Source: Desulfobulbus propionicus DSM 2032 (GTDB lineage Bacteria > Desulfobacterota > Desulfobulbia > Desulfobulbales > Desulfobulbaceae). Taken from it: DNA of 32,000 nucleotides. The DNA lies in NCBI RefSeq assembly GCF_000186885.1, contig NC_014972.1, forward strand, positions 1,620,001 through 1,652,000, written 5' to 3'. Position numbers and translations under genes: made by a program. The notes beneath the pieces are model-generated. The model worked only from the letters and a program-made list of their open reading frames with translations, did not search any database and was not told the DNA's origin. Positions 9,630-32,000 of this stretch are shown here, one piece after another (the first letter of the stretch is position 1; each line of letters starts with the position of its first letter).

Positions 9630-9706
9630 CGGAACGTAGCGCAGTCTGGTAGCGCACCTGAATGGGGTTCAGGGGGCCGGAGGTTCAAATCCTCTCGTTC
9701 CGACCA
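9630..9706 (+). tRNA. tRNA-Pro (anticodon GGG)
   Basis: Acceptor stem CGGAACG/CGTTCCG. D arm GCGC-AGTCTGGTA-GCGC. Anticodon arm CCTGA-ATGGGGT-TCAGG with GGG at positions 34-36. T arm GGAGG-TTCAAAT-CCTCT. Encoded ACCA. Confidence 0.92.
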
Positions 9707-9755: not shown

Positions 9756-9918
9756 ATACCCACCCCTGTGTTTTCAATGGCTCCAGCCGATTCCCATGTT
9801 TAACATGCTGTTTTAACGCATCATTTTTTCAAGTTGCACTCATTTTTAATCGTTGTATATCGTTGGTTATCGTTTCCTGTGCACGGAAATTTACACTCAA
9901 ATTTACACACGAAAAACG

Positions 9919-16407: not shown

Positions 16408-16572
16408 AAGGAGCAGAAGGTCAAAATCGTCTTTGTCCGCCATCGCCACAAACGCCAGAGGTTGGCCGTCCTCTCGACCAAGATTGACCTCGCCGACGAA
16501 GAAATTGTCCGCATCTACGGCAAACGGTGGGATATTAACGGCAAGTTGGAGCAAGCAAGTCAGAAACTTGAG
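16408..16572 (+). mobile_element. Third IS-A copy, remnant with 5' truncation and internal deletion
   Basis: 16408-16536 aligns to the IS-A transposase segment encoding KEQK(V/I)RIVFVRHRHKRQ..LSTKIDLADEEIVRIYGKRWDI. 16537-16572 aligns to the last ~37 bp of the element (TAACGGCAAGTTGGAGCAA...CAGAAACTTGAG; compare the reverse complement of 11019-11055). Confidence 0.75.
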
Positions 16573-16597: not shown

Positions 16598-16697
16598 AAC
16601 TGTTCGACTATTGCTGCGTTTCCAAATCCGAGAAACTCTACGGCTACGTCCTCCTGCTCCTGCACACGGCCATACGCTCTTCAGAAGGTGCTGCCAT
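16598..16697 (+). pseudogene. Fragment of a second tyrosine integrase gene
   Basis: It encodes LFDYCCVSKSEKLYGYVLLLLHTAIRSSEGA, clearly homologous at nucleotide and protein level to integrase residues LLDYCCVSKSEKLYCYVLLLLHTAMRPSEGA (10438-10545). There is no integrase sequence on either side. Confidence 0.8.
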
Positions 16698-16890
16698 CAT
16701 CCAGGTGGAGAACAAAGTCTGTGTCATTTTTTCTCAGTTGGGGGGGTAATGATTTCAATGCCTACACGGCAAAACGCTGTTTTTTCGAATATAAAATGAA
16801 AAAACTCTCTTGACTTCATATTTGTAATCGAAGAGACTTGTCAAGGTCGCCTGCTTACAACACTTACCTCAACCGAATTTGCTTCCTCCC

Positions 16891-17931
16891 ATGTCTAATC
16901 GTCACCATATTTTTTCGTTTACCGTCGCGTTGATCGTCCTGGTCAACATATCACCTGCCATCGGCGCAACCACGGAACCACAAACCAAACAGTTTGTCCA
17001 GCTCCTGCCCAAACCAGGCAAACAGGACACGAAAAATGCCCCGCTCCAACTCAACATCAAGAATGGTAAGAACGGCGTTCTCCTCGCCATTACCTTCGCC
17101 GGAGAAAAAATCACCCTTGAGAAAGGCGCGCAACCTGCTCCTCCTGGGGGTATGTACACTGTCTCGCTCGACGGCTCCATGGTACTGCAGGAAACCTTTA
17201 GCGAACCAACCCTGCACATCGAAAAACCATTGCCCATGCAAACTCTGGGGAACGGTGATCATGTTGTGCGCTGCGAGGTACACTACTCCATCGGCAAGAC
17301 CTATGAGGCAGAACTCCCCTTCAGTTTCGATGCAACGCCGATCATCACCCTGGAAAAACCTGGTTCTAAATCACCTGTACCCGATCCTTTGGTGGGCTTC
17401 CAATTTTACAACGAAAAGCAAGAGGTCGTCGGCTTTCTCGATGTCGCTGTGGATGAAAGATCGCTTGGGGTAACGCAAATCACCTCTCAGGCCAATGGTG
17501 AGAAGAAACCGCTGTCGCAATGGACGGGCAAGCCGATCTCCATCGCGGAACTCCCTCCAGGACAGCATCTGATCAGATTAACAGCCACGGGAACCAATGG
17601 CGGCGAAAGCGTCCAATTTGTTCCTTTCGAGGTGGAAGCCTTGCCGATGCTCAATGTGGACAAAAACAAGGAAGGAGCCATGGAAAGCATCAAAGCCACT
17701 TTTCTTCAGGCCAGCAGTGCCTACTCCGGCTCGGTGGAGATTTTCTACCAACATGGCGTCATCCTGTCTCTTCAAAGCAAAGAACCATCTGTGCTCATCA
17801 AAAAAAGCGACATAGTGCAGGCGTTTGCACAGCACAAACTGTCACTTCCTACCAAACCGGTCCCCCTGGTTGTGGGGCTTCGCTCCGCCAACAATACGGA
17901 GAACTGGCAGACAATCCTGTTTTTGCCGTAA
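16891..17931 (+). CDS. Secreted hypothetical protein with Ig-like beta-sandwich features (first gene of the rhs module)
   Basis: Signal peptide MSNRHHIFSFTVALIVLVNISPAIG/ATTEP. Recurring motif L-x-x-G-x-H-(V/L)-(V/I)-R (LGNGDHVVRCEV, LPPGQHLIRLTATGTNGGES), similar to the next gene. The start is ambiguous (TTG 16879 or ATG 16891) and no clear SD is present. Confidence 0.6.
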   Translation: MSNRHHIFSFTVALIVLVNISPAIGATTEPQTKQFVQLLPKPGKQDTKNAPLQLNIKNGKNGVLLAITFAGEKITLEKGAQPAPPGGMYTVSLDGSMVLQETFSEPTLHIEKPLPMQTLGNGDHVVRCEVHYSIGKTYEAELPFSFDATPIITLEKPGSKSPVPDPLVGFQFYNEKQEVVGFLDVAVDERSLGVTQITSQANGEKKPLSQWTGKPISIAELPPGQHLIRLTATGTNGGESVQFVPFEVEALPMLNVDKNKEGAMESIKATFLQASSAYSGSVEIFYQHGVILSLQSKEPSVLIKKSDIVQAFAQHKLSLPTKPVPLVVGLRSANNTENWQTILFLP

Positions 17932-17968
17932 CTCTTTCTCACCTTTCTTTTCAAGCAAGGAAAACCGA

Positions 17969-19681
17969 ATGTGCTGCTTTGCTCTGATCAGACGGCTGAG
18001 TGTCTGGATTCTGACCGTTCTTAGTATTTTTGCATTTATACCGGCATTAGCCGCCGCCACTAGTGCCTCTATTTCTATCAGCGGGCAGGAGGGTGCGCTC
18101 CCCCTGCAAGCATCAGGTGAATTCAGCGAATACACTTTTTGTGACGGAGCTCACCCGCCCAACTGCTGGACAGATAATTCAGGATCATTGACGGTTCGCC
18201 AAACATTCCCGAGCGGCGGTACCTATTCCATAGGAAGCAAATCCGGCAAAGGTTCGGCTGACTGGTCCACCACCTTAGATACCGGTGCCATGGCCCAGGG
18301 GACACACACATTTGTCGCAACAGCTTGCGACGTAAAAGGAAATTGCAGTTCTAACTCCCAAAGTATCACAATCGACAACACGCCGGCAGTAACGAGCACT
18401 GTAAGCAAAACGGAAGGTGAGCTTGATATCAAGGGAACCGTAGATTTCAAAGAATATGTCGGCGGCAATGAAGGATCCGTTACCCTTTATCACATATACC
18501 CTAACAACTCATATGCATATCGGATCCAGAGCAAATCCTTTGAAGGAACAAACGTCATAAACTGGACCTATCAGGAGATTGTTGGAGCCATTGCCGATGG
18601 GGGATCATGGGCACAAGGAAAGCACATCATTCGAGCCGTCGCCACAGCACACAATGGCGCCTCAACTTCTATTGATATCCCCATCACCATCGATAACACC
18701 CCGGAGGTTACGGGTTCAGCCAATAAAGTTGAAGGTGATCTCAATATTAAGGGGACAGTCGATTTCAAGGAATACGTCAGCGGCAATGAAGGATCCGTTA
18801 CCCTTTATCACATATACCCTAACAACTCATATGCATATCGGATCCAGAGCAAATCTTTTGAAGGAACAAACGTCATAAACTGGACCTATCAGGAGATTGT
18901 TGGAGCCATTGCCGATGGGGGATCATGGGCACAAGGAAAGCACATCATTCGAGCCGTCGCCACAGCACACAATGGCGCCTCAACTTCTATTGATATCCCC
19001 ATCACCATCGATAACACCCCGGAGGTTACGGGTTCAGCCAATAAAGCTGAAGGCGATCTCGACATTAAGGGAACAGTCGATTTCAAGGAATACGTCAGCG
19101 GCAATGAAGGATCCGTCACCCTCTATCACATATACCCTAACAACTCATATGCATATCGGATCCAGAGCAAATCCTTTGAAGGAACAAACGTCATAAACTG
19201 GACCTATCAGGAGATTGTTGGAGCCATTGCCGATGGGGGATCATGGGCACAAGGAAAGCACATCATTCGAGCCGTCGCCACAGCACACAATGGCGCCTCA
19301 ACTTCTATTGATATCCTCATCACCATCGACAACACGCCGGAGGTAAAAATCATCGGTCCTCGATGTTATGCCGACCTCACCTGTGACATTCTGGGCACGG
19401 TGCAATTCAAGGAATATGTCGGTGGAGCCGAGGGGAGCGTCACGCTGTATCTGAAGGATGTCAGCGCCTCCAGCTACAGCAGTTACGGCAGCAAGAGCTA
19501 TGAGGGAACGAGCATCAACTGGAAATATGCCGACTTCGCCGGAGCCCGGATAAGCAAGGCGACCTGGGGTGGCAGAGAACTGATGGTGCAGGTGGTGGCC
19601 AAGGCCGCCAACGGCGCCACGATGACCAGCTGGCAATACTTGATGATTCCGGCGCTTGGCTGCCCAATCCCGTTACGGTAA
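17969..19681 (+). CDS. Secreted protein of five tandem ~106-aa Ig-like domains
   Basis: ATG at 17969 gives MCCFALIRRLSVWILTVLSIFAFIPALAAATSAS (signal peptide), in frame with ORF 17825-19681. Five repeats each end in a G-x-H-x-x-x-x-V-A-x-A-x-N-G...I-T-I-D-N-T-P motif. It starts 37 bp after the previous gene and ends 22 bp before the rhs ATG. Confidence 0.75.
   Translation: MCCFALIRRLSVWILTVLSIFAFIPALAAATSASISISGQEGALPLQASGEFSEYTFCDGAHPPNCWTDNSGSLTVRQTFPSGGTYSIGSKSGKGSADWSTTLDTGAMAQGTHTFVATACDVKGNCSSNSQSITIDNTPAVTSTVSKTEGELDIKGTVDFKEYVGGNEGSVTLYHIYPNNSYAYRIQSKSFEGTNVINWTYQEIVGAIADGGSWAQGKHIIRAVATAHNGASTSIDIPITIDNTPEVTGSANKVEGDLNIKGTVDFKEYVSGNEGSVTLYHIYPNNSYAYRIQSKSFEGTNVINWTYQEIVGAIADGGSWAQGKHIIRAVATAHNGASTSIDIPITIDNTPEVTGSANKAEGDLDIKGTVDFKEYVSGNEGSVTLYHIYPNNSYAYRIQSKSFEGTNVINWTYQEIVGAIADGGSWAQGKHIIRAVATAHNGASTSIDILITIDNTPEVKIIGPRCYADLTCDILGTVQFKEYVGGAEGSVTLYLKDVSASSYSSYGSKSYEGTSINWKYADFAGARISKATWGGRELMVQVVAKAANGATMTSWQYLMIPALGCPIPLR
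18371..19324 (+). repeat. Three near-identical in-frame tandem repeats of 318 bp
   Basis: The ATCGA(C/T)AAC (IDN) landmark recurs at 18371, 18689, 19007 and 19325, exactly 318 bp apart. Shadow ORFs at 18579 and 18897 (+) give almost identical 99-aa translations. Diverged units flank the block at about 18053-18370 and 19325-19650. Confidence 0.95.
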
Positions 19682-19703
19682 CCATTTCCTATCGATAACG
19701 GTC

Positions 19704-22700
19704 ATGAAACGCTTCTTTCGCCCCATACAGTGTTTGCTCCTCTGCCTCGGGATCCTCCTTGCCGCGATCCCCTCCCTTGCCGGCAGCAACCCGTTTATTT
19801 CCAATCACGGTATCAACTTCTCCACTGGCAACAAGTTTATCCGTGAACGCGACGTCAGCCTGGCCGGGCCGGTGGAGCCGCTCAACTTCTCCCGTTACTA
19901 CAACAGCCAGAGCAAGGAGGACACGAGCTTTGGCTACGGCTGGTCATTCTCCGAGCTTGAGTCCCTGCAGATCGAGACCGGTCTTGAACTGATCGTCTAC
20001 ATCCGTACCGACGGCCACCTGCTGCACTTCACCGCCAACGGCACGACCGACCAGTGGGCCAATGAAGTCGGCCCCCGGGCACTGATCACCAAGACCGAGG
20101 AAGGCTACCTGCTGCGCCTGCCCGATGGACGCGCCCGGCAGTTCAACTTCGCGGGACAACTCCTTTTCCGGAAAGACGCCAACGGCAACCAGATCAACTA
20201 CACCCATGAAGGAAAGAATCTCAAGAGCATTACCGATAACTTCGGCCGGACTCTGAGTCTGGGGTACAACGAGGCGGGCAAGGTTGCCACGCTCACCGCT
20301 CCAATCGGTGTGTTCACCTACGCCTATGACTCCAACGGCAATCTGGTTTCCGTCACCCGCCCCGACGGCAAGCAGCGCACCTATCTCTACGAAAACGCCA
20401 CCAATCCGCATTGCCTGACCGGCATTGTCGACGAAACCGGCATTCGTGTGCTCACCGCTACCTACGACACCATGGGCCGGGTCGTTACCTCGGCCTTCGC
20501 CAACAACCGTGAGAAGGTGACCATTGCCTATCAGGCGGGTTTCAAGCGGGTGATCACCGACAGCCTGGGAGCCGTCACCACCTACCAGCTCGAATCCTGG
20601 AATGGCGTGGCCCAAGTCAAGTCGTTCACCGGTCCCGGTTGTTCCTCCTGCGGGTCCGACAGCGCCAGCCAATACACCTACGACCTGCGCCAACAGGTGC
20701 TTTCGCAAACCGACGCACGGGGCGTTACCAGCACCTACGCCTATGACGAACAGGGCAACCGGATCCGCGAGACCCGCGCCATCGGGACCGCCCAGGAATA
20801 TACGACCACCACCACCTACACGCCCAATTTTGACAAACCGGCGACCATCACCGAACCATCGACAGGCAACCCCGGGCAGTACAAGGTGACGTCCTTCTCC
20901 TATGACGCGGCGGGCAACCCGCTTACCCGCACGGAAACGGGATACAACGCCAGTGGAGCGATCAGCCGAACAACCACCACCGTCTATGACAGCCTGGGTC
21001 GCATCGTCTCCATCGACGGACCAAGAACCGATGTCAACGACATCATCACCTTGAGCTATTATGACAACACCCCGGGCCAGAGACTCAACCGGGGCTTTCT
21101 CCGCAGCGTCACCAATGCCGCTGGTCACCAGGTGGTATTCAGCGACTACAACAACCAGGGACTGCCCGGACAAATCACCGATGCCAACGGGCAAACAACC
21201 CTGCTTGCCTACAATGCGCAAGGCCGCCTCATCGAACGGCAGAGCAGCGGCCGTGTCACCCAATACCGCTACAACGACGCCGGCGCCTTGACGTCCGTGA
21301 TTCTTCCCGGCAACCGCACCCTCTCCTACAGCTATAACGCTGCCGGTCAAGTGGCTCAGGTCACCGACCAAATCGGCAACACCATTAGTTATGACTATGA
21401 CAGTGAAGGCCGCGTGCTGCGCCGGGAAGTTCGCGACCCGGAGGGCAACCTGACCACCGCGCTCTCCGCCGAATATGACCAGGCCGGCCGGATCCTCAAG
21501 CTGACCCATCCCGACGGCAGCAACGAGCAACGCAGCTATGACCAGACGGGCAATCTGACGGAACTGACCAACGGCCTGGGACAAACATCCGCCTACAGTT
21601 ATGACGTCCTGAACCACATGAGCGCGGCGGATGAACCAGCCGGCAATGTCAGCTTCCGTTACGATCTCCACGGCAACCTGAGCGCTGTCACCGACGCAAA
21701 AGGCAGAACAACCCGGTACACGTATGATGATTTCGGCAACCGGGTTGCCGAGGTCTCACCGGATACCGGCACGGTCACCATGCGCTATGACGCCGCCGGC
21801 AACCTGATCGAGAAAACCGACGCCAACACTATCACCGTCTCCTACGTCTATGATGCGCTCAACCGGTTAACCGGGATCTTCTATCCGGATAACGCGCTGA
21901 ACGTGGCGTACACCTACGATGCCGGAAGCAACGGCAAGGGCCGGTTGACCGCTGTGCGCGACAACAGCAGCAGTTATGGCTTCAAATACAACGCCTTTGG
22001 CGAATTGAGCGCCGAGACCGCCGCCATCACCGACCACACCTTCACCACCAACTACAGCTACAATGACAACGGCGAGCTGGTGGCCGTTACTTATCCCAGC
22101 GGCCGGATCGTCACCTCCGAGCGCGACGCCGCCGGCAACGTCACCGCGATCCGCAGTGTCTACCAGGGGCAAACCAGTATCGTCGCCGAGAGCATCGCCC
22201 GTCTGCCCTTCGGCCCTCCCACGGCCATGACCCTGGGAAACGGCCTGTCCGTGGCTTCAACCTACGATCAACTCTACCGCCTGACGTCCATACAAGCCGG
22301 CGGACTCATGCACCGGAGCTACAGCTATAACGCGATCAGCCAGGTAACCGCCATCGCCGACCAGCTGGCCAGCGCCAAATCCCAAACCTTTGCCTACGAC
22401 GAGGCCAGCCGCCTGCTCTCCGCTCAAGGCGTCTACGGAGCAATCAACTATACCTATGATGAGGCCGGCAACCGATTGACCAGCGTCCAGGACGGGGCCA
22501 CCTCAACCTATACCTATGCCCAATCCAGCAATCGATTGCAGCGTATCCAGGGTGCCGAGTCCATTGACTACAGCTACGACGCGGCCGGCAACCCGCTCAG
22601 CAAGGGCAACCAGGCCTACACCTGGAACCAGGAGAACCGGCTGGCACGGGTCACTCTCAACAACGCGGTGGCCGGCCAATACAGCTACGACTTCCGGGGG

Positions 22701-25700
22701 TTGCGAAAAACAGCCGTCACCACAGCCGGCACGACCCTGTTTCTGCACGATCCGAGCGGTAACCTGCTGGCCGAGGCCGATATCCAGGGGACCATCCTGC
22801 GGGAATATGTCTACCTCGATGGCCAGCGGTTGAGTGCGTTTGACTATACCGCCCTGCCCGCGTTCGCCGTCACCGTGACCACTTCGTCCGGGGTTGTTGT
22901 CGAGGGGGTTCAGGCCTATGCCTTTGACGAGCAGAACCAATACACCAATCTCCATGTCGCCACTGACGCCGAGGGCAAGGCGACGTTCAATCGCGATGAC
23001 TTTGGCGAGGGCGCATACCGGTTCCGGGTCGATTACCTGGGGCATCAGTTGTGGACCGAACCGGTGACGGTCAAGACCAGCCAGGGTGTCAGCCTGGTGA
23101 TCAGCGAGACGCCAGTCGCCGTGCAGGTACCGACAAGCGATGCCACCCAGGCCGGCGCCACGGTTTACGTGTTCAGCGAATCGGGTGAATACCTGGGAAT
23201 TTCCGGGACCATTGACGAAACGGGCAAGGTCTCGTTCACCCTGCCCGTGGGAGGCAAATACACGTTCCGCACGGAACTCTTCGGCCAGCTGTACAGCAGC
23301 GCCCTGACCACGGCGGCTGCCGGGGCCTCGGTCACGGTCGATTCCGGTGGCGGGGTTCTCACCGTACAACTCGCCGATGACGCCAGTGCGATCCTTTCGG
23401 GGATCAAGACCACGCTCCACAGTTCAGGGGGGGCCTACCTGGGCCTCACCCGGACCAGCGATACCACCGGTAAGGTCAGCTATACCATGCCTTCCGGGAG
23501 CTATCTGCTCAAGGCCGAGTTCCTGGGCTATCCGTTCTGGAGCACCACGCTGAGTGTCACCTCCGACACGGCCGCCACCCTCACCATTCCCCGCCGTGAC
23601 CTCACCGCGCGCGTAACCCTGCAATACGAGGGTGCGGCCACGCCACTGAGCTCGGTGCCCTGCACCCTCTTCACCCCTGAAGGGGTGGAATTGGGCCAGC
23701 AGCGGAGCACCAATACCCAGGGCGAGGCCATATTTTCCGTGCCGCAAAAGCCTTACCGGATCAAGGCCACCTATCTGGCCCAGGAATATTGGTCGGCCGA
23801 CGTGACCTGGGAAAACGCTCCCATCGTCATCGCCGGCGGCAAGGCGGTGGTCAATACGACCAACAACGGCATGCCGCTGGCAGGGGCCACCCTGCGGGTG
23901 TATACCGCCACGGGGACCGATACCGGCATAACAGCTCTGACCGACAGCGAGGGAAAAACCACGTTCACCCTGCCCGGAGGTTCGTACCGTTTCCAGGCGA
24001 CCCATGAAGGCCAACTGTTCTGGAGCGGGAATCTGACCGTCACGCCCGACCAGACCATCCACACCACTATCTCCACCGGTGGCGGTTCCTATGTGCTGAA
24101 CGTGACCAACGGAACAGCGGGGATCGCCGGGGTCAAGACCATGCTGTTCTCGGCCTCCGGCTCCTACCTCAGTCAGTCGGTCACCACCTCCAGCACCGGC
24201 GAGGCGGCGTACAACCTGGCCGATGGCAGTTACCGGGTCACAGCCAATTACCTGGGGTATGAGTACAGCACCGATCCGTTCACCGTGCCCCTGATCGCCT
24301 CCCAGACCCTGGCCATTCCCCACCTGGCCCACACGGTCTCGGTGGTCCGGAGTTACCAGAACGATCGCGTCCCCCTGGCCAACATCGAGGCCACCCTGTG
24401 CTCCGTGGACGGATCCCCGCTGGCGCTCACCGTCGCCACCGGCACCGACGGCACCCTGCAATGGAGTCTGCCGGCACAGGCCTATGCGGTTCAGGCGCGC
24501 TATCTGGGGCGAACCTATCTCAGCTCGACCTTCACCAACGATGACCCTACCGTACTCATCCCCGAAGGCCTGGCCAGGGTGACGCTCCTTCAAGGCGGGA
24601 CAGCCCTGGCGAACACCCAGGTCCTTGCTATCAGCGAGAGTGATCCCGATCATCCCAAAAGCCTGATCACCAACGACAGTGGCGTGGCTGAATTCCGGCT
24701 GCCGGCCGGTTCCTACACCTTCAAGGCGACTCTGGGCGAAACCGTATACCAGGGTATCGGCACAGTCGTTGCTGATCAGATCACCAACGTCACACTCAAT
24801 CTGGGGACAAGTACCCTGTCGATCACCGTGCGCACGAACGAAACCACCGTCCTGCCTGGCGTTGTCTGCTCTCTCTATACAGCCGAAGGCGAACCGCTCA
24901 ACCGCAGCGCCACCACCGATGGTTCCGGCGTGGCCTCCTTTGCGGTGGAGGCCGGGACCTATCGAGTCAAGGCCTGGCATCTGGGCTATGACTTCACCAG
25001 CGAGGTGATCGAAACACCGGTGGTTCTCTCTGCCAGCCTGACCATCCCCCATCGCGATCTAGCCGTCCACGTGCTCAAGGATCAGGGGGACGGCGTGGAA
25101 CCGGTCTCCGGGCTGCGCTGTTATCTCTACTCCCTGGGCGAAGGCGAGGGGCTGAACGCCACCGAACTCCATGCCGACAGCGACGATCAGGGCATGGTTC
25201 ATTTTGTGGTGCCCGAGGAGCGGGCCTATTACGCCGTGGCCACCTTGCTCGGCCGCGAGTTCATCAGCGTGGAAAGCGAGGGCCAGGCCACCCTGACCAT
25301 CGAGCTGGGCACGATGACGGTTACCGTGCGCGACGACAGTGCGGTCACCGAGACCAATCCCGATGGTTTGGTACAGGGAGCAGTGGTGACGCTCTACACC
25401 AATGAAGGGACAGCCCTGGGCCAGGAACTGAGCACCGGGGCCGACGGCCAGGTCTGCTTCACCCTGCCCGAGGGCAGCTACAGACTGCGCGTCGGCTATA
25501 ACGATCAGCAGTTCTGGAGCGGGGTGATCAATACCTATCCCCTGGGCGACACGCCGGTGGAAATGATCAATGGCTCCGGCGGAATACTGAGCCGGCTGCA
25601 CGATCCCCATCCCTCCCTCTGGCACGGAACACCGCCGCAATACCGGCCACTATTGGCCCTGGCCTCAGGCTCGCTGGCCGGGATGCTGACCACCACGTCA

Positions 25701-26483
25701 ACACCCGTTGCCGCCACACCCCAGGTGGTCTATTATCTCAACGATCACCTGGGCACAGCGCAACTGCTCGTCGACGCCGCAGGGACCGTGATCTGGCAGG
25801 GTGACACCCAGCCCTTTGGCCAGGTGACTGAGGTGATTAACCAGATCGACCACCGGTTCCGCTTCCCCGGCCAGATGGTTGATCCTGAGAGCGGGTTGTA
25901 TTACAACTGGAACAGGTTCTATGATACTTCCACCGGGCGATACCTATCTCCTGATCCGATTGGGTTGGATGGGGGGATGAATTTTTATGCTTATGTCGGA
26001 GGGGATCCGGTCAACTGGGTGGATCCGTGGGGATTGGCAAAATGCACTTATTCAATATCAAAACACACGTTGATTTGTGTTTCAAATACTACAGATGATA
26101 TAAATTTTATAGGTCCTCACGAGCAAAGGCAAGTTGGGCCTGAAGGTGTTTTTTCTGGTCAAGGTGAATGCCAAGATGTTCCTTCTGACGAATGCACTGA
26201 TGACAAATACAATGGTCCAATTGTACCAGGTAACTATAATATAAATGAAGACAATAGACCTGGTCATAATGATTGGTTCAGGTTAGAGCCATCACCAAAA
26301 ATTCCCGGTTGGAAGGTCCTGTCAGGATTAGAACGAGGTGGTTTCGCATTTCACCTTGGAAGCAGGTCGGCTGGTTGCATAAATGCGAATAAAAATAATC
26401 AAGAAACGGTACAACAGTTTAGAAATTTACAGAATTTGATAAAACGAGAAAGTGGTTCCAACACTTTAAAGGTTGGGCCATGA
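19704..26483 (+). CDS. RHS/YD-repeat polymorphic toxin: signal peptide, YD-repeat region, 11-domain beta-sandwich array, RHS core (DPWGL), DUF2778/Tlde1-like C-terminal toxin
   Basis: ATG at 19704 gives MKRFFRPIQCLLLCLGILLAAIPSLAG/SNPF. There are many YD repeats (YxYDxxGNL, e.g. YAYDSNGNLVSV, YSYDAAGNPLTR, YRYDLHGNLSAV). The RHS-associated core reads VVYYLNDHLGTAQLLVDAAGTVIWQGDTQPFGQV...RFPGQMVDPESGLYYNWNRFYDTSTGRYLSPDPIGLDGGMNFYAYVGGDPVNWVDPWGL, with DPWGL at 26022-26036. No PAAR-like N-terminus recognised. Confidence 0.93.
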   Translation: MKRFFRPIQCLLLCLGILLAAIPSLAGSNPFISNHGINFSTGNKFIRERDVSLAGPVEPLNFSRYYNSQSKEDTSFGYGWSFSELESLQIETGLELIVYIRTDGHLLHFTANGTTDQWANEVGPRALITKTEEGYLLRLPDGRARQFNFAGQLLFRKDANGNQINYTHEGKNLKSITDNFGRTLSLGYNEAGKVATLTAPIGVFTYAYDSNGNLVSVTRPDGKQRTYLYENATNPHCLTGIVDETGIRVLTATYDTMGRVVTSAFANNREKVTIAYQAGFKRVITDSLGAVTTYQLESWNGVAQVKSFTGPGCSSCGSDSASQYTYDLRQQVLSQTDARGVTSTYAYDEQGNRIRETRAIGTAQEYTTTTTYTPNFDKPATITEPSTGNPGQYKVTSFSYDAAGNPLTRTETGYNASGAISRTTTTVYDSLGRIVSIDGPRTDVNDIITLSYYDNTPGQRLNRGFLRSVTNAAGHQVVFSDYNNQGLPGQITDANGQTTLLAYNAQGRLIERQSSGRVTQYRYNDAGALTSVILPGNRTLSYSYNAAGQVAQVTDQIGNTISYDYDSEGRVLRREVRDPEGNLTTALSAEYDQAGRILKLTHPDGSNEQRSYDQTGNLTELTNGLGQTSAYSYDVLNHMSAADEPAGNVSFRYDLHGNLSAVTDAKGRTTRYTYDDFGNRVAEVSPDTGTVTMRYDAAGNLIEKTDANTITVSYVYDALNRLTGIFYPDNALNVAYTYDAGSNGKGRLTAVRDNSSSYGFKYNAFGELSAETAAITDHTFTTNYSYNDNGELVAVTYPSGRIVTSERDAAGNVTAIRSVYQGQTSIVAESIARLPFGPPTAMTLGNGLSVASTYDQLYRLTSIQAGGLMHRSYSYNAISQVTAIADQLASAKSQTFAYDEASRLLSAQGVYGAINYTYDEAGNRLTSVQDGATSTYTYAQSSNRLQRIQGAESIDYSYDAAGNPLSKGNQAYTWNQENRLARVTLNNAVAGQYSYDFRGLRKTAVTTAGTTLFLHDPSGNLLAEADIQGTILREYVYLDGQRLSAFDYTALPAFAVTVTTSSGVVVEGVQAYAFDEQNQYTNLHVATDAEGKATFNRDDFGEGAYRFRVDYLGHQLWTEPVTVKTSQGVSLVISETPVAVQVPTSDATQAGATVYVFSESGEYLGISGTIDETGKVSFTLPVGGKYTFRTELFGQLYSSALTTAAAGASVTVDSGGGVLTVQLADDASAILSGIKTTLHSSGGAYLGLTRTSDTTGKVSYTMPSGSYLLKAEFLGYPFWSTTLSVTSDTAATLTIPRRDLTARVTLQYEGAATPLSSVPCTLFTPEGVELGQQRSTNTQGEAIFSVPQKPYRIKATYLAQEYWSADVTWENAPIVIAGGKAVVNTTNNGMPLAGATLRVYTATGTDTGITALTDSEGKTTFTLPGGSYRFQATHEGQLFWSGNLTVTPDQTIHTTISTGGGSYVLNVTNGTAGIAGVKTMLFSASGSYLSQSVTTSSTGEAAYNLADGSYRVTANYLGYEYSTDPFTVPLIASQTLAIPHLAHTVSVVRSYQNDRVPLANIEATLCSVDGSPLALTVATGTDGTLQWSLPAQAYAVQARYLGRTYLSSTFTNDDPTVLIPEGLARVTLLQGGTALANTQVLAISESDPDHPKSLITNDSGVAEFRLPAGSYTFKATLGETVYQGIGTVVADQITNVTLNLGTSTLSITVRTNETTVLPGVVCSLYTAEGEPLNRSATTDGSGVASFAVEAGTYRVKAWHLGYDFTSEVIETPVVLSASLTIPHRDLAVHVLKDQGDGVEPVSGLRCYLYSLGEGEGLNATELHADSDDQGMVHFVVPEERAYYAVATLLGREFISVESEGQATLTIELGTMTVTVRDDSAVTETNPDGLVQGAVVTLYTNEGTALGQELSTGADGQVCFTLPEGSYRLRVGYNDQQFWSGVINTYPLGDTPVEMINGSGGILSRLHDPHPSLWHGTPPQYRPLLALASGSLAGMLTTTSTPVAATPQVVYYLNDHLGTAQLLVDAAGTVIWQGDTQPFGQVTEVINQIDHRFRFPGQMVDPESGLYYNWNRFYDTSTGRYLSPDPIGLDGGMNFYAYVGGDPVNWVDPWGLAKCTYSISKHTLICVSNTTDDINFIGPHEQRQVGPEGVFSGQGECQDVPSDECTDDKYNGPIVPGNYNINEDNRPGHNDWFRLEPSPKIPGWKVLSGLERGGFAFHLGSRSAGCINANKNNQETVQQFRNLQNLIKRESGSNTLKVGP
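22860..25585 (+). repeat. Array of 11 tandem ~80-90-aa beta-sandwich (CarboxypepD_reg / prealbumin-like) domains inside the rhs gene
   Basis: Each unit follows the pattern (hydrophobic strand)-G-(V/A)-x-(V/L)-x-L(Y/F)-x-x-x-G-x-x-x-x-x-x-x-T-(D/N)-x-x-G-x-x-x-F-x-(L/V)-P-x-G-x-Y-x-(F/V)-x-A-x-x-x-G. Examples: TDSEGKTTFTLPGGSYRFQATHEG, TNDSGVAEFRLPAGSYTFKATLGE, TDGSGVASFAVEAGTYRVKAWHLG. Confidence 0.8.
26037..26483 (+). other. C-terminal toxin domain CT1: DUF2778 / Tlde1-like L,D-transpeptidase-fold
   Basis: 148 aa after DPWGL, in visibly AT-rich DNA. Motifs: VFSGQGECQDVPSDECTDDKYNGPIVPGNYNI (compare the SG-x-G...N-x-P...GPIPPG-x-Y pattern of DUF2778) and ERGGFAFHLGSRSAGCINA (a His...S-x-G-C-I-(N/R) YkuD-like catalytic motif). 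Confidence 0.55.
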
Positions 26484-26935
26484 AAGTCGTCAAGCGAATA
26501 ATCATAATGTTATCTTTAAGCTTAGTTGTATTAATGCTAAGTTTTTTATTAAAAAATTATGTGTTTGATAAAGCAATCTTACACTTAAAGGAAGAAAATC
26601 ATGAATATGCTCTTTATTATTTGAAGCCATTGGCATTTGTTGGGTATTCTGAAGCGCAAAAAATTCTTGGTGAATGTTTTGCTTTTGGCCATGGTGTTGA
26701 AAAAAACAAGGAAAAAGCTAAATACTGGTTAAGACGTGCTCATGATGGCAGTGACTGTAACAGCGATCGATGTATCGCTGCCGATTTATATTTTATCGGT
26801 GAAAATTATTTAGAAGGAGTTGGTGTTGAGATTAATCGTGAAGAAGCTATGAATTGGATTAAAATGGCGGCAGATAACGGCTACCCCAAGGCTGTTGAAT
26901 ATATGTCTCAACCCCGGAGCCCTGAAGCTCGATAG
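26480..26935 (+). CDS. Sel1-like repeat protein with N-terminal membrane anchor; cognate immunity candidate for CT1
   Basis: Its ATG overlaps the rhs stop (ATGA at 26480-26483). N-terminal hydrophobic segment IIIMLSLSLVVLMLSFLL. Sel1/SLR motifs: AQKILGECFAFGHGVEKNKEKAKYWLRRA and YFIGENYLEGVGVEINREEAMNWIKMAADNGYPKA. AT-rich like CT1. Confidence 0.75.
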   Translation: MKVVKRIIIMLSLSLVVLMLSFLLKNYVFDKAILHLKEENHEYALYYLKPLAFVGYSEAQKILGECFAFGHGVEKNKEKAKYWLRRAHDGSDCNSDRCIAADLYFIGENYLEGVGVEINREEAMNWIKMAADNGYPKAVEYMSQPRSPEAR

Positions 26936-26990: not shown

Positions 26991-28880
26991 AGCGGCAACC
27001 CGACCGTACTCATCCCCGAGGGCTTGGCCAGGGCGACACTGCTCCAGGGTGGAGCTGCCCTGGCGAACACCCAGGTGGTGGCGATCAGTGACAGCGATCC
27101 CGACCATCCCCAAAGCCTGACCAGCGATGCCAGCGGCGTGGCCGAATTGCGTTTGCCGGCCGGCTCCTACACCTTCAAGGCTACCCTGGGTGAAACCGTG
27201 TACCAGGGCATCGGCACGGTGCTCGCCGACCAGACCACCAACGTCACCCTCAATCTGGGGACAAGTACCCTGTCTATCACTGTGCGCAAGAATGAGACCA
27301 CCGTCCTGCCTGGCGTTGTCTGCTCTCTCTATACGGCCGAAGGCGAACCGCTTGACCGCAGCGCCACCACCGATGGTTCCGGCGTGGCCTCCTTTGCGGT
27401 GGAGGCTGGGACCTATCGGGTCCAAGCCCGGTATCTGGGCTATGACTTCACCAGCGAGGTGATTGAAACACCGGCGGTTCTCGCCGCCAGCCTCACCATC
27501 CCCTATCGCGACCTGGCCGTTCGCGTGCTCAAGGATCAGGGGCAAGGCACGGAACCGGTCTCCGGGCTGCGCTGTTATCTCTACTCCCTGGGGGAAGGCG
27601 AGGGGCTGAACGCCACCGGGCTCCATGCCGACAGCGACGATCAGGGCATGGTCCATTTTGTGGTGCCCGAGGAGCGGGCCTATTACGCCGTGGCCACCCT
27701 GCTCGGCCGCGAGTTCATCAGCGTGGAAAGCGAGGGCCAGGCCACCCTGACCATCGAGCTGGGCACGATGACGGTTACCGTGCGTGACGACAGTGCGGTC
27801 ACCGAGGCCAATCCCGATGGTTTGGTGCAGGGGGCGGTGGTGGAGCTCTACACCAGTGAAGGGACGGCTCTGGGCCAGGAACTGAGCACCGGGGCCGACG
27901 GCCAGGTCTGCTTCACCCTGCCCGAGGGCAGCTACAAGCTGCGCGTCGGCTATAACGATCAGCAGTTCTGGAGCGGGGTGATCAATACCTATCCCCTGGG
28001 CAACACGCCGGTGGAAATGGTCAATGGCTCCGGCGGTATACTGAGCAGGCTGCACGATCCCCATCCCTCCCTCTGGCACGGAACACCACCGGAATACCGG
28101 CCACTATTGGCCCTGACCTTGGGATCACTGGCCGGGATGCTGACCACCACGTCAACGCCCGTTGCCGCCACGCCCCAGGTGGTCTATTACCTCAACGATC
28201 ATCTGGGCACGGCGCAACTGCTCGTCGACGCCACAGGAATAGTCATCTGGCAGGGTGACGCCCAGCCCTTTGGCCAGGTGACTGAGGTGATCAACCAGAT
28301 CGATCACCGATTCCGCTTCCCCGGCCAGATGGTTGATCCTGAAAGCGGGTTGCATTACAACTGGAACAGGTTTTATGATCCTGCCACTGGGAGGTACCTA
28401 TCACCTGATCCGATTGGGCTGGATGGGGGGACGAATTTGTATGGGTATGTCGGAGGGGATCCGGTGAACTCGATTGATCCGCTTGGATTATTTAATCCCA
28501 CCAAAGGAATTGCTTCACTTGGCAATGCAGCAAACGCTGGTCGGCTGTACGCTGGAGGTGTTTTGAAACTTGGCGCAGCAGCTGGTTTGACAAGCACTGG
28601 GTTAGGGGCACCTGCTGGAACTGGAGTCGCAGCGCTTGGTACATGGAACTTGTGGTCTGCACAATCTGCCTGGAATCGCTCGTTACAACAATGGAATGAG
28701 GCTTGGAATGAAAGTTGGGACGACGCAACGTGGAAAAATCTTCTGGGTATATTGCCCTTTGGTACCGAGTTTGATGACCCTTGTGAGCCTTCGGCATGGG
28801 ATGTCCTGAAAGCTAAAGCAAAGAATTTCAAGGATAAACCTGACGAAATAATCAGAGAAATAGGAACTTGGGGATTCTAA
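26991..28880 (+). CDS. Orphan rhs C-terminal module 1 (array units 8-11 + RHS core + alternative toxin CT2); no credible own start
   Basis: From about 26998 it is colinear and highly similar to main-gene 24547-26036 (PTVLIPEGLARATLLQGG... to ...GGDPVNSIDPLGL, with DPLGL at 28476-28490). It then diverges into an AT-rich 129-aa tip: FNPTKGIASLGNAANAGRLYAGGVLKLGAAAGLTSTGLGAPAGTGVAALGTWNLW... Confidence 0.85.
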   Translation, partial: SGNPTVLIPEGLARATLLQGGAALANTQVVAISDSDPDHPQSLTSDASGVAELRLPAGSYTFKATLGETVYQGIGTVLADQTTNVTLNLGTSTLSITVRKNETTVLPGVVCSLYTAEGEPLDRSATTDGSGVASFAVEAGTYRVQARYLGYDFTSEVIETPAVLAASLTIPYRDLAVRVLKDQGQGTEPVSGLRCYLYSLGEGEGLNATGLHADSDDQGMVHFVVPEERAYYAVATLLGREFISVESEGQATLTIELGTMTVTVRDDSAVTEANPDGLVQGAVVELYTSEGTALGQELSTGADGQVCFTLPEGSYKLRVGYNDQQFWSGVINTYPLGNTPVEMVNGSGGILSRLHDPHPSLWHGTPPEYRPLLALTLGSLAGMLTTTSTPVAATPQVVYYLNDHLGTAQLLVDATGIVIWQGDAQPFGQVTEVINQIDHRFRFPGQMVDPESGLHYNWNRFYDPATGRYLSPDPIGLDGGTNLYGYVGGDPVNSIDPLGLFNPTKGIASLGNAANAGRLYAGGVLKLGAAAGLTSTGLGAPAGTGVAALGTWNLWSAQSAWNRSLQQWNEAWNESWDDATWKNLLGILPFGTEFDDPCEPSAWDVLKAKAKNFKDKPDEIIREIGTWGF

Positions 28881-29042
28881 ATGTCAACCTTTACATTTAT
28901 TACAATTGCTCTCTCTGTAGTTTTTATGATTTACTGCACAGTACTTTATGTTCGGGATCTTAAGGTCGGAAAAGACTCATTTATCAAGAAAACAGGACGG
29001 TGGCTTAAAAACGTAATCGATGTTTTTTTTGGTGCTGGATAG
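28881..29042 (+). CDS. 53-aa single-pass membrane protein; immunity candidate for CT2 (below ORF-track size cutoff)
   Basis: The ATG at 28881 directly abuts the orphan-1 stop (TAA ATG). Translation: MSTFTFITIALSVVFMIYCTVLYVRDLKVGKDSFIKKTGRWLKNVIDVFFGAG*, with TAG at 29040-29042. One clear hydrophobic helix. AT-rich like CT2. Confidence 0.55.
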   Translation: MSTFTFITIALSVVFMIYCTVLYVRDLKVGKDSFIKKTGRWLKNVIDVFFGAG

Positions 29043-29086: not shown

Positions 29087-30979
29087 GCCCTGCCCAACAC
29101 CCAGGTCATGGCGATCAGCGACATCGATCCCGACCATCCCCAAAGCCTGACCACCGACGCTGGCGGCGTGGCCGAATTCCGGTTGCCGGCCGGCTCCTAC
29201 ACCTTCAAGGCCACCCTGGGTGAAACCGTGTACCAGGGCATCGGCACGGTGCTCGCCGACCAGACCACCAACGTCACCCTCAACCTGGGGGCCAGCACCC
29301 TGGCGATCACCGTGCGCACGGACGAAACCACCGTCCTGCCCGGTGTGGTCTGCTCCCTCTATACAGCCGAAGGCGAGCCGCTTAACCGCAGCGCCACCAC
29401 CGATGGTTCCGGCGTGGCCTCCTTTGCGGTGGAGGCTGGGACCTATATGGTCCAAGCCCGGTATCTGGGCTATGACTTCACTCTCGAAGCGATCGAAACA
29501 CCAACGGTTCTCGCCGCCAGCCTCACCATCCCCCATCGCGACCTGGCCGTCCGCGTGTTCAAGGATCAGGGGAACGGCGCGGAACCGGTCTCCGGGCTGC
29601 GCTGTTATCTCTACTCTCTGGGCGAAGGCGAGGGGCTGAACGCCACCGGGCTCCATGCCGACAGTGACGATCAAAGCATGGTTCATTTTGTGGTACCCGA
29701 GGAACGGGCCTATTACACCGTGGCCACCCTGCTCGGCCGCGAGTTCATCAGCGTGGAAAGCGAGGGCCAGGCCACCCTGACCATCGAGCTGGGCACCATG
29801 ACCGTCACCGTGCGCGACGATAGCCAAATCACCGAGGCCAATCCCGATGGTTTGGTACAGGGGGCAGTGGTGACGCTCTACACCAATGAAGGGACAACCC
29901 TGGGCCCGGAACTGAGCACCGGGGCCGACGGCCAGGCCTGCTTCACCCTGCCCGAGGGCAGCTACAAGCTGCGCGTCGGTTATAACGATCAGCAGTTCTG
30001 GAGCGGGGTGATCAATACCTACGCCCTGGGCAACACGCCGGTGGAAATGGTCAATGGCTCCGGCGGCCTGCTCAGCCGGCTGCACGATCCCCATCCCTCC
30101 CGCTGGCACGGGACGCCACCGCAATACCGGCCACTATTGGCCCTGGCCTCGGAGTCGCTGGCCGGGATGCTGACCACCACGTCAACCCCGGTTACCGCCA
30201 CGCCCCAGGTGGTCTATTATCTCAACGATCACTTGGGCACAGCGCAACTGCTCGTCGACGCCGCAGGGACCGTGATCTGGCAGGGCGACACCCAGCCCTT
30301 TGGCCAGGTGACCGAGGTGATCAACCAGATCGATCACCGATTCCGCTTCCCCGGCCAGATGGTTGATCCTGAGAGCGGGTTGTATTACAACTGGCACAGG
30401 TTTTATGATCCTTCCACGGGGAGGTACCTATCCGCTGACCTGATTGGGTTGAATGGGGGGATTAATCTCTTTGCTTATGTTGGTGGCGATCCGGTGAATT
30501 TGATCGATTTAGAGGGACTTGCTGGTTGCAAGGTACTGTTTCCCAACATGCCTATTGATACAGGTATGGGTTTTACATCAACAAGTCTTGGAGGTCACGG
30601 AGGAATTCTTACCTATGATACCAATGGTACAACTAAGTATTACGAGTATGGGCGTTATCCAGCGAGCCAAGCTGTTGGATCAGGCTTGCCTTCAGATGAA
30701 GGCAATGTTCGTCGACTTAGCGTACCCAACCTACAGCTAGATAAAAACGGTCAACCAACCCCTGAGTCACTGGCGGCATTGAAAGAGTTTCTTGAGAAAA
30801 AAGCTGGGAAGGATACAGATTCTGAGTTGACTTGTGACGCTAATGCTGATGAGAAAAAAATTCTTGATTATATTGATAAAATTTCCAAAGATCCGAAGCG
30901 ACCTAAATATAAATGGAATCCATGGAACAGTAATCATTGTCGCGATTTTGCTACACGGGCATATAATTCAGGGCGATAA
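29087..30979 (+). CDS. Orphan rhs C-terminal module 2 (array units 8-11 + degenerate RHS core + alternative toxin CT3)
   Basis: Similarity to the main gene begins at about 29087 (ALPNTQVMAISDIDPDHPQSL versus ALANTQVLAISESDPDHPKSL at about 24603) and runs to GGDPVNLIDLEGL (30506-30520). An AT-rich 152-aa tip follows (AGCKVLFPNMPID...GGHGGILTYD...NSNHCRDFATRAYNSGR). The in-frame ATG at 29108 has no SD. Confidence 0.85.
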   Translation, partial: ALPNTQVMAISDIDPDHPQSLTTDAGGVAEFRLPAGSYTFKATLGETVYQGIGTVLADQTTNVTLNLGASTLAITVRTDETTVLPGVVCSLYTAEGEPLNRSATTDGSGVASFAVEAGTYMVQARYLGYDFTLEAIETPTVLAASLTIPHRDLAVRVFKDQGNGAEPVSGLRCYLYSLGEGEGLNATGLHADSDDQSMVHFVVPEERAYYTVATLLGREFISVESEGQATLTIELGTMTVTVRDDSQITEANPDGLVQGAVVTLYTNEGTTLGPELSTGADGQACFTLPEGSYKLRVGYNDQQFWSGVINTYALGNTPVEMVNGSGGLLSRLHDPHPSRWHGTPPQYRPLLALASESLAGMLTTTSTPVTATPQVVYYLNDHLGTAQLLVDAAGTVIWQGDTQPFGQVTEVINQIDHRFRFPGQMVDPESGLYYNWHRFYDPSTGRYLSADLIGLNGGINLFAYVGGDPVNLIDLEGLAGCKVLFPNMPIDTGMGFTSTSLGGHGGILTYDTNGTTKYYEYGRYPASQAVGSGLPSDEGNVRRLSVPNLQLDKNGQPTPESLAALKEFLEKKAGKDTDSELTCDANADEKKILDYIDKISKDPKRPKYKWNPWNSNHCRDFATRAYNSGR

Positions 30980-30981
30980 AC

Positions 30982-31323
30982 ATGAAGAAATTGACGCTGT
31001 TTCTTTTGCTTTCTCTATCTGTTAGTATAATTTGCTGTGCTTTTTTTGCCTATTTTTGGATAGATAGGTCTATCTCTCTTGACTATCTCCAACAATCTTA
31101 TGAAACTGAGCGAAGTTCTGTAGCAAATTTACAAAAATTAATTGCTTCGGAATGGAAGGGTTTACCTGAAGGGCAAGTACAAAAAAAACTAGAGCAAGTA
31201 GCAGCTAAATCGCCAGAACGTCGCATTGTTGTAAAAAAAGAGGGTTCGATCATTTGGTTCGATCAGGTTCCTTTCAATATCGAGCAAGGAAGACTCGATA
31301 GCGTGGGGCCAAGTACTCGTTAA
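30982..31323 (+). CDS. 113-aa membrane-anchored protein; immunity candidate for CT3
   Basis: It starts 2 nt after the orphan-2 stop. N-terminal hydrophobic anchor MKKLTLFLLLSLSVSIICCAFFAYFWI, then a soluble domain. AT-rich. Confidence 0.6.
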   Translation: MKKLTLFLLLSLSVSIICCAFFAYFWIDRSISLDYLQQSYETERSSVANLQKLIASEWKGLPEGQVQKKLEQVAAKSPERRIVVKKEGSIIWFDQVPFNIEQGRLDSVGPSTR

Positions 31324-31651: not shown

Positions 31652-32000
31652 TCCTCGGCCTCCGGCTCCTACCTCAATCAGTCGGTCACCACCTCCAGCA
31701 CCGGCGAGGCGGCGTACAACCTGGCCGATGGCAGTTACCGGGTCACGGCCAACTATCCGGGGTATGAATACAGCACCGATCCGTTCACCGTCCCCCTGGT
31801 CGCCTCCCAGGCCCTGGCTATTCCCCACCTGGCCCACACGGTCTCGGTGGTCCGGAGCTACCAGAACAACCGCGTGGCCTTGGCCAACATCGAGGCCACG
31901 CTGTGCACTGTGGACGGTACCCCCCTGGCGCTCACCGCCGCCACCGGAGCCGACGTCACCCTGCAATGGAGTCTTCCGGCACAGGCCTATGCGGTTCAGG
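31652..32000 (+). CDS. Orphan rhs module 3, 5' portion (array units 6-7 onward); continues beyond the window
   Basis: Not in the ORF track because it has no stop in the window. The frame starting at 31655 reads SASGSYLNQSVTTSSTGEAAYNLADGSYRVTANYPGYEYSTDPFTVPLVASQALAIPHLAHTVSVVRSYQNNRVALANIEATLCTVDGTPLALTAATGADVTLQWSLPAQAYAVQ. This is colinear with main-gene 24148-24500. Confidence 0.85.

Follow-up and report, generated by a model that had tools for sequence, protein, structure and literature searches.

How would a Rhs toxin with a Sec leader be presented by a sulfate-reducing diderm bacterium in which no type VI secretion system (T6SS) is detectable, and what part could be played by two secreted proteins encoded directly upstream of it? 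A locus of Desulfobulbus propionicus DSM 2032 raises this question. It lies in a stretch of 32,000 nucleotides (NC_014972.1, positions 1,620,001 to 1,652,000 of the forward strand), called here the window, in whose numbering all positions are given. Three genes, A, B and rhs, follow one another on the + strand (16891-17931, 17969-19681 and 19704-26483) with spacers of 37 bp and 22 bp. Exact look-ups identify A as Despr_1438 and B as Despr_1439; for the Rhs protein they give ADW17596.1 ('YD repeat protein'), and for an Imm58 gene further downstream Despr_1443. We found no mention of Despr_1438-1440 in the literature. We think it reasonably probable that the locus encodes an island-borne, T6SS-independent, Sec-exported polymorphic Rhs toxin system in which B is a separate stalk and A a partner. 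An earlier note on this DNA, made from the sequence alone, had described the co-directional trio and its two gaps, and these stand; the start that it gave for gene A, the TTG at 16879 of the mechanical open reading frame (ORF), does not, as the alignment of homologues favours the ATG at 16891. The parts of the three genes are as follows.

16891..17931, + strand: gene A (Despr_1438, 346 aa), a secreted all-beta protein with about three Ig/FN3-like domains, from a small family adjoining B.
17969..19681, + strand: gene B (Despr_1439, 570 aa), with a signal peptide, five bacterial immunoglobulin (Ig)-like domains and a short conserved tail (MIPALGCPIPLR).
18413..19344, + strand: tandem repeat in gene B, 2.9 copies of a 318-bp unit with 96% matches (TRF), encoding the middle Ig domains.
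19704..19784, + strand: Rhs signal peptide (MKRFFRPIQCLLLCLGILLAAIPSLA/G-S), from the heuristic described below and conservation in five loci.
19806..20030, + strand: DUF6531 N-terminal plug (aa 35-109), Pfam PF20148 at 64-69 bits; the plug role comes from the Tse5 literature.
20031..22859, + strand: YD/RHS-repeat shell (aa 110-1052), PF05593 RHS_repeat at 274 bits and TIGR01643 YD_repeat_2x at 215 bits.
22860..25712, + strand: insertion of about 950 aa (aa 1053-2003), with 11 tandem CarboxypepD_reg/prealbumin-like domains at aa 1058-1952.
25713..26036, + strand: Rhs-associated core/C-terminal plug, carrying PVNWVDPWGL (aa 2102-2111) as its aspartyl autoprotease motif, TIGR03696 at 88.6 bits and PF03527.
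26037..26483, + strand: C-terminal toxin of 148 aa, Tlde1 (L,D-transpeptidase-like, peptidoglycan-targeting), PF10908 at 51.5 bits for a cutoff of 30.1; HLGSRSAGC; GC content 0.39.

The three genes recur together at other loci. The full A-B-Rhs triad was found in the window and four times elsewhere, adjoining Tn3 (L001), adjoining IS110 (L008), after lptD and mltA (L009) and at L010. A-B pairs on contigs that break inside the repetitive B gene were found at L003-L006, in D. alkaliphilus DSM 24258 (A 43% identical) and at the metagenomic L015/L016 (A 40% identical); L002, cut off at A's stop codon, carries no information on linkage. Gene order and spacing are the same in every informative locus and the flanks differ, so that the linkage of the two upstream genes with rhs homologues, which the earlier note had made a condition of its proposal, is conserved in five full triads with unrelated flanks and in further A-B pairs. 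At L001, L008, L009 and L010, identity to the window is respectively 76, 90, 42 and 32% for A, 88, 74, 61 and 42% for the N-terminal domain of B, and 82, 86, 55 and 41% for Rhs, and the divergence of the three proteins is correlated across loci. These comparisons show that A, B and Rhs are inherited together, as a conserved unit and a mobile three-gene cassette. L014, where A seemed to lack a following B, was rejected as a counter-example, since it is L015 again, with a scaffold gap that falls within B. The source label of L001 (ERZ21862645, a 3.4-Mb contig), 'uncultured Vibrio sp.', looks doubtful, its A, B and Rhs being 76-88% identical to those of D. propionicus. In two more distant loci, L010 (6557-8818) and L015 (3205-4659, also L014 and L016), a fourth gene lies directly 5' of A and encodes a protein in which Glce_b_sandwich domains and bacterial TSP3 (calcium-binding) repeats accompany one or two RHS repeats. 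This gene has no counterpart in the D. propionicus window, where debris of insertion sequences (IS) and integrase genes precedes A instead.

The second line of evidence comes from relatives in which B and Rhs are one polypeptide. In five proteins from more distant Thermodesulfobacteriota (P0026, P0034, P0037, P0039 and P0040, P0034 being from a Thermodesulfobacteriota metagenome-assembled genome), a leader and B-like Ig repeats are followed by DUF6531 and RHS repeats. The fused linker (e.g. ...GSCEIRPFTTG-PINFSTGNKF) is colinear with the tail of B (...MIPALGCPIPLR) plus the mature N-terminus of Rhs (SNPFISNH-GINFSTGNKF). With phmmer, H34-G35 of Rhs aligns to the 'HP' of the HPVHAATG plug motif of Pseudomonas protegens RhsA (7q97), an 'HP' that we take to be H304-P305, the deposited chain being numbered differently. 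In RhsA, autocleavage at H304|P305 removes the PAAR-bearing N-terminal region, and in Tse5 the N-terminal fragment stays anchored after cleavage by means of the DUF6531 plug. The boundary between the B and rhs genes lies within the linker, 8 residues 5' of the position aligned with the RhsA autocleavage site. At the cleavage-equivalent position all five split-type Rhs proteins have HG, and the fused relatives have a proline, as P(I/V), in four of five cases and an alanine in P0034. Given the fusions of B-like arrays to DUF6531/Rhs and a gene boundary so near the aligned cleavage site, B is therefore best read as a detached N-terminal stalk. Judging from these alignments, the B|Rhs boundary would be the gene-level equivalent of the canonical N-terminal cleavage, and B would dock as a stalk on the plug end of the cocoon.

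The structure predicted for B agrees with a rod. Its AlphaFold2 model (pLDDT 88.4) consists of a leader helix and five beta-sandwich domains, and the best structural match in the PDB is 6xi3, the extender repeats of a large adhesin. By sequence, B had no match in the PDB, Pfam returned only a Big_13 match below threshold, and NCBIfam and PADLOC gave nothing diagnostic. B is 570, 994, 882, 775 and 780 aa long in the five triad loci. Through near-identical 318-bp repeats, in the manner of adhesin extenders, its domain count ranges between five and about nine. The repeats of B are matched by a profile made from A and, with the beta-sandwich fold of B, this bears out the Ig-type motif that had been noticed in both proteins. 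Mature B contains paired cysteines plus one lone conserved cysteine in its C-terminal tail, C565 (nt ~19661), and mature A a single cysteine, C128 (nt ~17272), conserved in four of the five loci. An intermolecular A-B (or B-Rhs) disulfide in the periplasm, suggested by these lone residues, is speculative. We detected no barrel or channel features in A or B, both of which are all-beta, Ig/FN3-like, soluble-type proteins. Of the roles first proposed for the upstream proteins, that of surface scaffold or presentation partner is favoured for B, by its Ig rod and by the B-like arrays fused to DUF6531/Rhs. The role of export partner, if this means an outer-membrane translocator, finds no support because neither protein has barrel or channel features.

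Gene A matched nothing in Pfam or NCBIfam, and PADLOC returned nothing diagnostic for it. Its family is small: a word-indexed search of 5.8 billion proteins gave 10 clusters, and an exhaustive hidden Markov model search of 1.84 billion representatives gave 33 full-length members at E<1e-30, all of about 320-376 aa. All 11 inspected representatives begin with a hydrophobic, signal-peptide-like segment. A word-indexed search with distant members of the family returned eight proteins and one new locus, and a search of genome contigs with the A profile returned a single species representative, D. alkaliphilus, in which the contig is cut within B. Next to the fused-type loci L011-L013 the profile detected no homologue of A; therefore, A is not universal to B-Rhs systems and is specific to the split clade. 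We infer that A is a clade-specific secreted partner, its role being the least certain among the parts.

A Sec-type leader had been claimed for each of the three proteins, and a heuristic applied across the five triad loci supports it. All 15 A, B and Rhs proteins have a basic n-region, a hydrophobic core beginning at residue 9-14 (best 10-aa Kyte-Doolittle mean of 2.4-3.2) and candidate cleavage sites with small residues at -1/-3, at residues 18-32; nine presumed cytoplasmic proteins of the window, used as controls, score at most 1.6. In the AlphaFold2 model of B, residues 3-22 form a lone helix preceding the first beta-sandwich. None of the three leaders has a cysteine at +1 of its candidate cleavage site, hence none looks like the signal of a lipoprotein.

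In the Rhs protein itself (2259 aa) the leader is followed by the DUF6531 plug and the YD shell, then by the insertion of about 950 aa, which is a single one, and finally by the Rhs core and the toxin. The leader that the earlier note had seen on it is thus confirmed, but it does not run straight into the YD repeats, as the DUF6531 plug intervenes. In the first 170 residues Pfam at E<=10 finds DUF6531 (residues 35-109) alone, in agreement with the claim that there is no PAAR- or adaptor-like N-terminal segment, and scans of the full-length protein find no PAAR, prePAAR, DUF4150, VgrG, SpvB or two-partner secretion (TPS) domain. In Pfam the insertion scores 131 bits for CarboxypepD_reg and 79 bits for SpaA, and self-profile detection resolves it into 11 repeats. 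It is missing from the colinear Rhs of L010 (1256 aa), which aligns in two blocks, aa 3-1052 (41% identity) and aa 2004-2111. All the hallmarks of a cocoon-type Rhs/YD polymorphic toxin are present, namely the YD shell, the DUF6531 plug, the core motif and a variable toxin with immunity genes and orphan cassettes.

These last elements occupy the remainder of the window.

26480..26935, + strand: Sel1-repeat protein with an N-terminal hydrophobic anchor, Pfam Sel1 at 58.8 bits, GC content 0.36; it overlaps the rhs stop with its first 4 bp.
26998..28880, + strand: orphan rhs cassette 1, with 1.48 kb at 91% DNA identity (blastn) to rhs 24544-26027, then an unrelated Gly/Ala-rich C-terminal domain of 129 aa.
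28881..29042, + strand: hydrophobic ORF of 53 aa from the ORF list, directly after orphan cassette 1.
29087..30979, + strand: orphan rhs cassette 2, 90% identical (blastn) to rhs 24603-26011, then a TseH-like (NlpC/P60-type) toxin, PF25218 at 42.9 bits.
30982..31323, + strand: Imm58 immunity protein (Despr_1443), PF15581 at 191 bits.
31654..32000, + strand: start of a third orphan rhs cassette, 92% identical (blastn) to rhs 24149-24495, continuing past the window end.

As an array of polymorphic toxins directed to the periplasm, the downstream region is of the textbook type. Published work describes the Tlde1/Tae5 family as toxic in the periplasm of the target cell. The Sel1-repeat protein is a candidate for the cognate immunity protein of the Tlde1 toxin, and the 53-aa ORF (28881-29042), which has no Pfam match, is by its position a candidate small membrane immunity protein. 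Over about 1.4 kb of rhs, each of the three orphan cassettes shows 90-92% identity to it. As they start within repeat 8 or earlier, the repeats of the insertion also provide homology for toxin swapping, and as the third cassette runs past the window end, the array is longer than what is visible here. The seven C-terminal domains from the window and the four orthologous loci are all mutually unrelated. In orphan cassette 2 the autoprotease region (SADLIGLNGG...PVNLIDLEGL) differs from that of the main gene by two Pro to Leu changes and one Asp to Asn change; the aspartates matching both catalytic residues are retained.

No T6SS was detected that could deliver this toxin. Within the window, Pfam and NCBIfam scans found no hcp, vgrG, tss or tpsB, so the claim that none is present in these 32 kb held up, and for the whole genome we relied on the published TXSScan and T346Hunter tables for NC_014972. 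Table S3 of TXSScan gives, for type I to type IX secretion systems (T1SS to T9SS) and related machines, T1SS 0, T2SS 0, type IV pilus (T4P) 0, Tad 0, flagellum 1, T3SS 0 and 0 for all T4SS, then T5aSS 3, T5bSS 0, T5cSS 0, T6SSi/ii/iii 0 and T9SS 0. T346Hunter likewise gives 0 T6SS (Table S7). A T6SS cluster lying immediately outside the window, which would have spoken against the earlier proposal, is thus absent genome-wide by both programs. Campbell et al. reported only type II secretion components in the D. propionicus genome. That the host is a diderm is indicated by lptD adjoining related loci and by the genome belonging to the diderm set of TXSScan.

The earlier note went wrong in restricting Sec-dependent Rhs relatives to monoderms: a 2012 catalogue, Myxococcus Rhs4/5 and Thermodesulfobacteriota YD-shell toxins contradict it. 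In the catalogue (Zhang, de Souza, Anantharaman, Iyer & Aravind 2012, PMC3482391), the combination of signal peptide and RHS repeats is listed under 'T2SS/Sec-dependent' as the most prevalent class, in all bacteria, and Tox-LD-peptidase is paired with RHS repeats and T2SS/T6SS export, deltaproteobacteria included. The D. propionicus system shares with those Sec-dependent RHS toxins the signal peptide, the RHS repeats, the variable toxin, the immunity gene and the orphan cassettes. However, it differs from the catalogue in its A/B-type accessory genes, in the N-terminal module being a gene of its own and in the prealbumin insertion, and the catalogue proposes no mechanism for the diderm outer membrane. 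It does describe, with MafA/MafB, a toxin with a conserved upstream secreted anchor partner. In Myxococcus xanthus, Rhs4 and Rhs5 (PMC10433427) carry signal sequences, lie on mobile elements, antagonise kin without a T6SS and are presumed to be surface-displayed. Like the D. propionicus protein, they are large signal-sequence Rhs proteins of a diderm associated with mobile elements; unlike it, and comparing by description, they are single polypeptides of about 4000 aa for which A/B partners are not reported.

The T6SS Rhs cocoons (RhsA 7q97, P. aeruginosa Tse5 8cp6 and Photorhabdus laumondii Rhs1/Tre23 7pq5) have in common with the D. propionicus protein the DUF6531 plug, the YD shell and the PxxxxDPxGL autoprotease; an N-terminal delivery module that ends at the plug is likewise common to both, and among PDB sequences it is RhsA that the D. 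propionicus Rhs matches best (4.9e-62). In contrast to them, a Sec leader here replaces PAAR/prePAAR or VgrG coupling, the Ig rod comes from a separate gene and the autocleavage proline is a glycine. Assignment to the class of T6SS-delivered effectors was accordingly rejected, there being no Pfam or NCBIfam match to PAAR/prePAAR, VgrG, Eag, DUF4123 or DUF2169 in the protein or the window, a Sec-type leader and a T6SS count of 0. WapA of Bacillus and Streptococcus suis (PMC12704120) is a Sec-dependent Rhs with DUF6531, and its export in S. suis needs the upstream srtB and a secF-like gene. It differs in coming from monoderms, in its cell-wall-binding N-terminus and in upstream genes for a sortase and a SecF-like protein instead of Ig proteins. 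The WapA type was rejected, as Rhs has no LysM or cell-wall-binding domain and the host is a diderm. Bacterial teneurin-like proteins (9ifo, 9pt5; PMC13018210, 2026) are Sec-targeted YD-shell toxins of diderms, including Thermodesulfobacteriota, whose delivery route is explicitly stated to be unknown. Sec targeting, the YD shell, polymorphic C-terminal domains and immunity genes are common to both, and theirs have diverse N-terminal adhesion modules. Membership in this group, with its FN-plug, NHL and YD-shell, was rejected, since there is no NHL or FN-plug match, the plug is DUF6531 instead, and the similarity to 9ifo/9pt5 covers only shell residues 529-1051. Two further classes were set aside in the same way: the BC component of Tc toxins (TcdB-TcaC), as there is no SpvB or propeller match and only the Rhs core aligns to TcdB2-TccC3, and two-partner secretion or contact-dependent inhibition (CDI), as there is no TPS domain, no TpsB/CdiB in the window and a T5bSS count of 0 in TXSScan.

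Our proposal for how the system would work is the following. B, a rod with between five and about nine Ig domains, would serve as the N-terminal stalk of the toxin while being physically separate from it. After Sec export it would rejoin the plug end of the cocoon non-covalently through its conserved C-terminal tail, a re-association that we liken to the autocleaved N-terminal fragments of Tse5 and RhsA, which remain bound to their cocoons. B could then present or tether the cocoon to contact neighbouring cells. A, as an Ig-type relative confined to the split clade, may be an extra scaffold or assembly partner, and the 11 prealbumin-like domains, which presumably loop out close to the cocoon's opposite end, would add binding surface. 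The aspartyl autoprotease would cut the C-terminal toxin, which would act in the target periplasm. A bolder form of this proposal, which we regard as doubtful, is that A, B and Sec constitute a dedicated and undescribed route of Rhs presentation in a diderm lacking T6SS, TPS and, by TXSScan, a complete T1SS and T2SS. The complex would get to the cell surface or to a neighbouring cell outside the numbered secretion systems, with the tail of B plugging into the cocoon as a trans-acting 'seal peptide' and A linking the complex to the envelope, possibly via A-C128/B-C565.

Several points weigh against the stalk-and-partner proposal. Leaders were judged by a hydrophobicity and cleavage-site heuristic. 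Co-transcription of A, B and rhs is deduced from the 37- and 22-bp spacing and synteny, and in a promoter/terminator scan the signal was no better than in shuffled sequence. The AlphaFold2 model of A, built from 11 sequences, is poor (pLDDT 58, about three beta-sandwiches), and its Foldseek matches are tandem FN3/BIg proteins, with no finer resolution. Mutual binding of A, B and Rhs is presumed, and the split/fused pattern seems compatible with either direction, fission or fusion. Finally, none of the proteins of the module resembles an outer-membrane channel, so the module does not itself account for passage through the outer membrane of the producer; TXSScan finds no complete T1SS or T2SS in the genome, and by our own estimate an Rhs cocoon in its folded state may exceed the size that a secretin can pass. 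As a label for A-B-Rhs, 'delivery module' should be taken as an inference.

The difficulty of the outer membrane gives some weight to a different explanation, in which the three proteins stay in the periplasm after export and the toxin is released in bulk, reaching competitors only by outer-membrane vesicles or by lysis of a fraction of the producers, A and B serving to stabilise or aggregate the cocoon. Tc toxins, for instance, are released by lysis. The lack of an outer-membrane translocator in the module and of a complete T1SS, T2SS, T5bSS, T6SS or T9SS in the TXSScan results would fit such a release, and the N-terminal hydrophobic anchors of the immunity candidates are consistent with guarding of the producer's own periplasm. 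However, an Ig rod of variable length like that of adhesin extenders, and fused relatives with the architecture of surface proteins, both fit display better; moreover, the signal-sequence Rhs proteins of Myxococcus are thought to act at the surface, and the window, to which this observation is confined, shows no lysis cassette. We therefore consider bulk release rather unlikely. It is also conceivable, though we find it improbable, that the role of the locus is not antagonistic, and that cocoon and stalk mainly mediate a teneurin-like adhesion or kin recognition in aggregates, with the toxin-immunity pair as a mere addiction or identity marker. Bacterial teneurin-like YD-shell proteins have been discussed as possible cell-cell interaction molecules, and the locus is rich in large adhesion-type arrays (B, A and the 11 prealbumin-like domains); against this, the catalytic motif of Tlde1 is intact, and three orphan cassettes with seven unrelated C-terminal domains are the signature of diversifying antagonism.

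The two remaining explanations fare worse. Ig-repeat surface proteins are common and neither A nor B has a diagnostic domain match, so they could be ordinary adhesins which happen to lie beside rhs on a mobile island and have no functional connection with it. This is largely refuted by an order and spacing kept in at least five complete and at least six partial loci with different flanks and correlated divergence, by the fusion of B-like arrays to DUF6531/Rhs in other lineages and by the search turning up no locus in which A lacks a downstream B, and we give it very little credence. Even less credible, and contradicted by the data, is a cryptic T6SS cargo whose hydrophobic N-terminus would be a prePAAR-type membrane domain and which would be fired by a T6SS encoded elsewhere. 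It is true that the Tlde1 and TseH families were first described as T6SS effectors, but there is no PAAR or prePAAR, nor any Eag, other adaptor or VgrG gene nearby; the N-terminus has one hydrophobic segment and, behind it, a cleavage site with small residues, and the two published scans find no T6SS in NC_014972.

The setting of the locus is that of a mobile element. The first 9.6 kb of the window carry tRNA-Val, thrS, infC, rplT, pheS, pheT, an IHF-like gene, a MerR gene and tRNA-Pro; after tRNA-Pro comes a tyrosine integrase, followed by a mosaic in which a hemerythrin fragment and a second integrase remnant lie among IS fragments.

9630..9706, + strand: tRNA-Pro(GGG) (ARAGORN), the likely integration site of the island, with the tyrosine integrase gene directly 3'.
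9853..10962, + strand: tyrosine recombinase/integrase (NCBIfam, Pfam); IS fragments and the second integrase remnant follow to about 16750.

From the tRNA gene, the integrase and the debris of IS and integrase genes, it follows that the rhs locus lies on a much-rearranged island adjoining tRNA-Pro. Just upstream of gene A, 16408-16535 is a copy of an IS fragment (89% identical to 14575-14702), and directly 5' of the gene, 16600-16691 is a 92-nt integrase fragment (90% identical to 10447-10538). The presence of such copies points to nested or tandem island insertions that may have taken place at tRNA-Pro. Closer to the gene, a terminator-like hairpin with a T-run (16766-16790) precedes an inverted repeat, CTTGAC...GTCAAG, at 16809-16846, about 45-80 bp 5' of the start of A, which could be the operator or promoter region of the operon.

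In conclusion, systems of this kind are already known, namely Rhs polymorphic toxins of diderms that are exported by Sec and do not depend on a T6SS. What appears to be new is the conserved A/B pair, the evidence for B as a detached N-terminal stalk split at about the canonical cleavage site, and the 11-domain prealbumin insertion. Peptidoglycan toxins of the Tlde1 and TseH types, known as T6SS effectors, are carried here on a T6SS-independent chassis. The exit of Sec-exported Rhs/YD-shell toxins from diderms is an acknowledged gap, stated for the teneurin-like proteins in 2026 and implicit for Myxococcus Rhs4/5. The present locus addresses it in a type strain that is in culture and has a closed genome, T6SS-free by published scans, and offers two conserved accessory proteins amenable to deletion or pull-down. 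Furthermore, the natural split of a toxin that has fused counterparts leads to a precise hypothesis, the docking of the B tail on the DUF6531 plug, which is open to structural and biochemical study.

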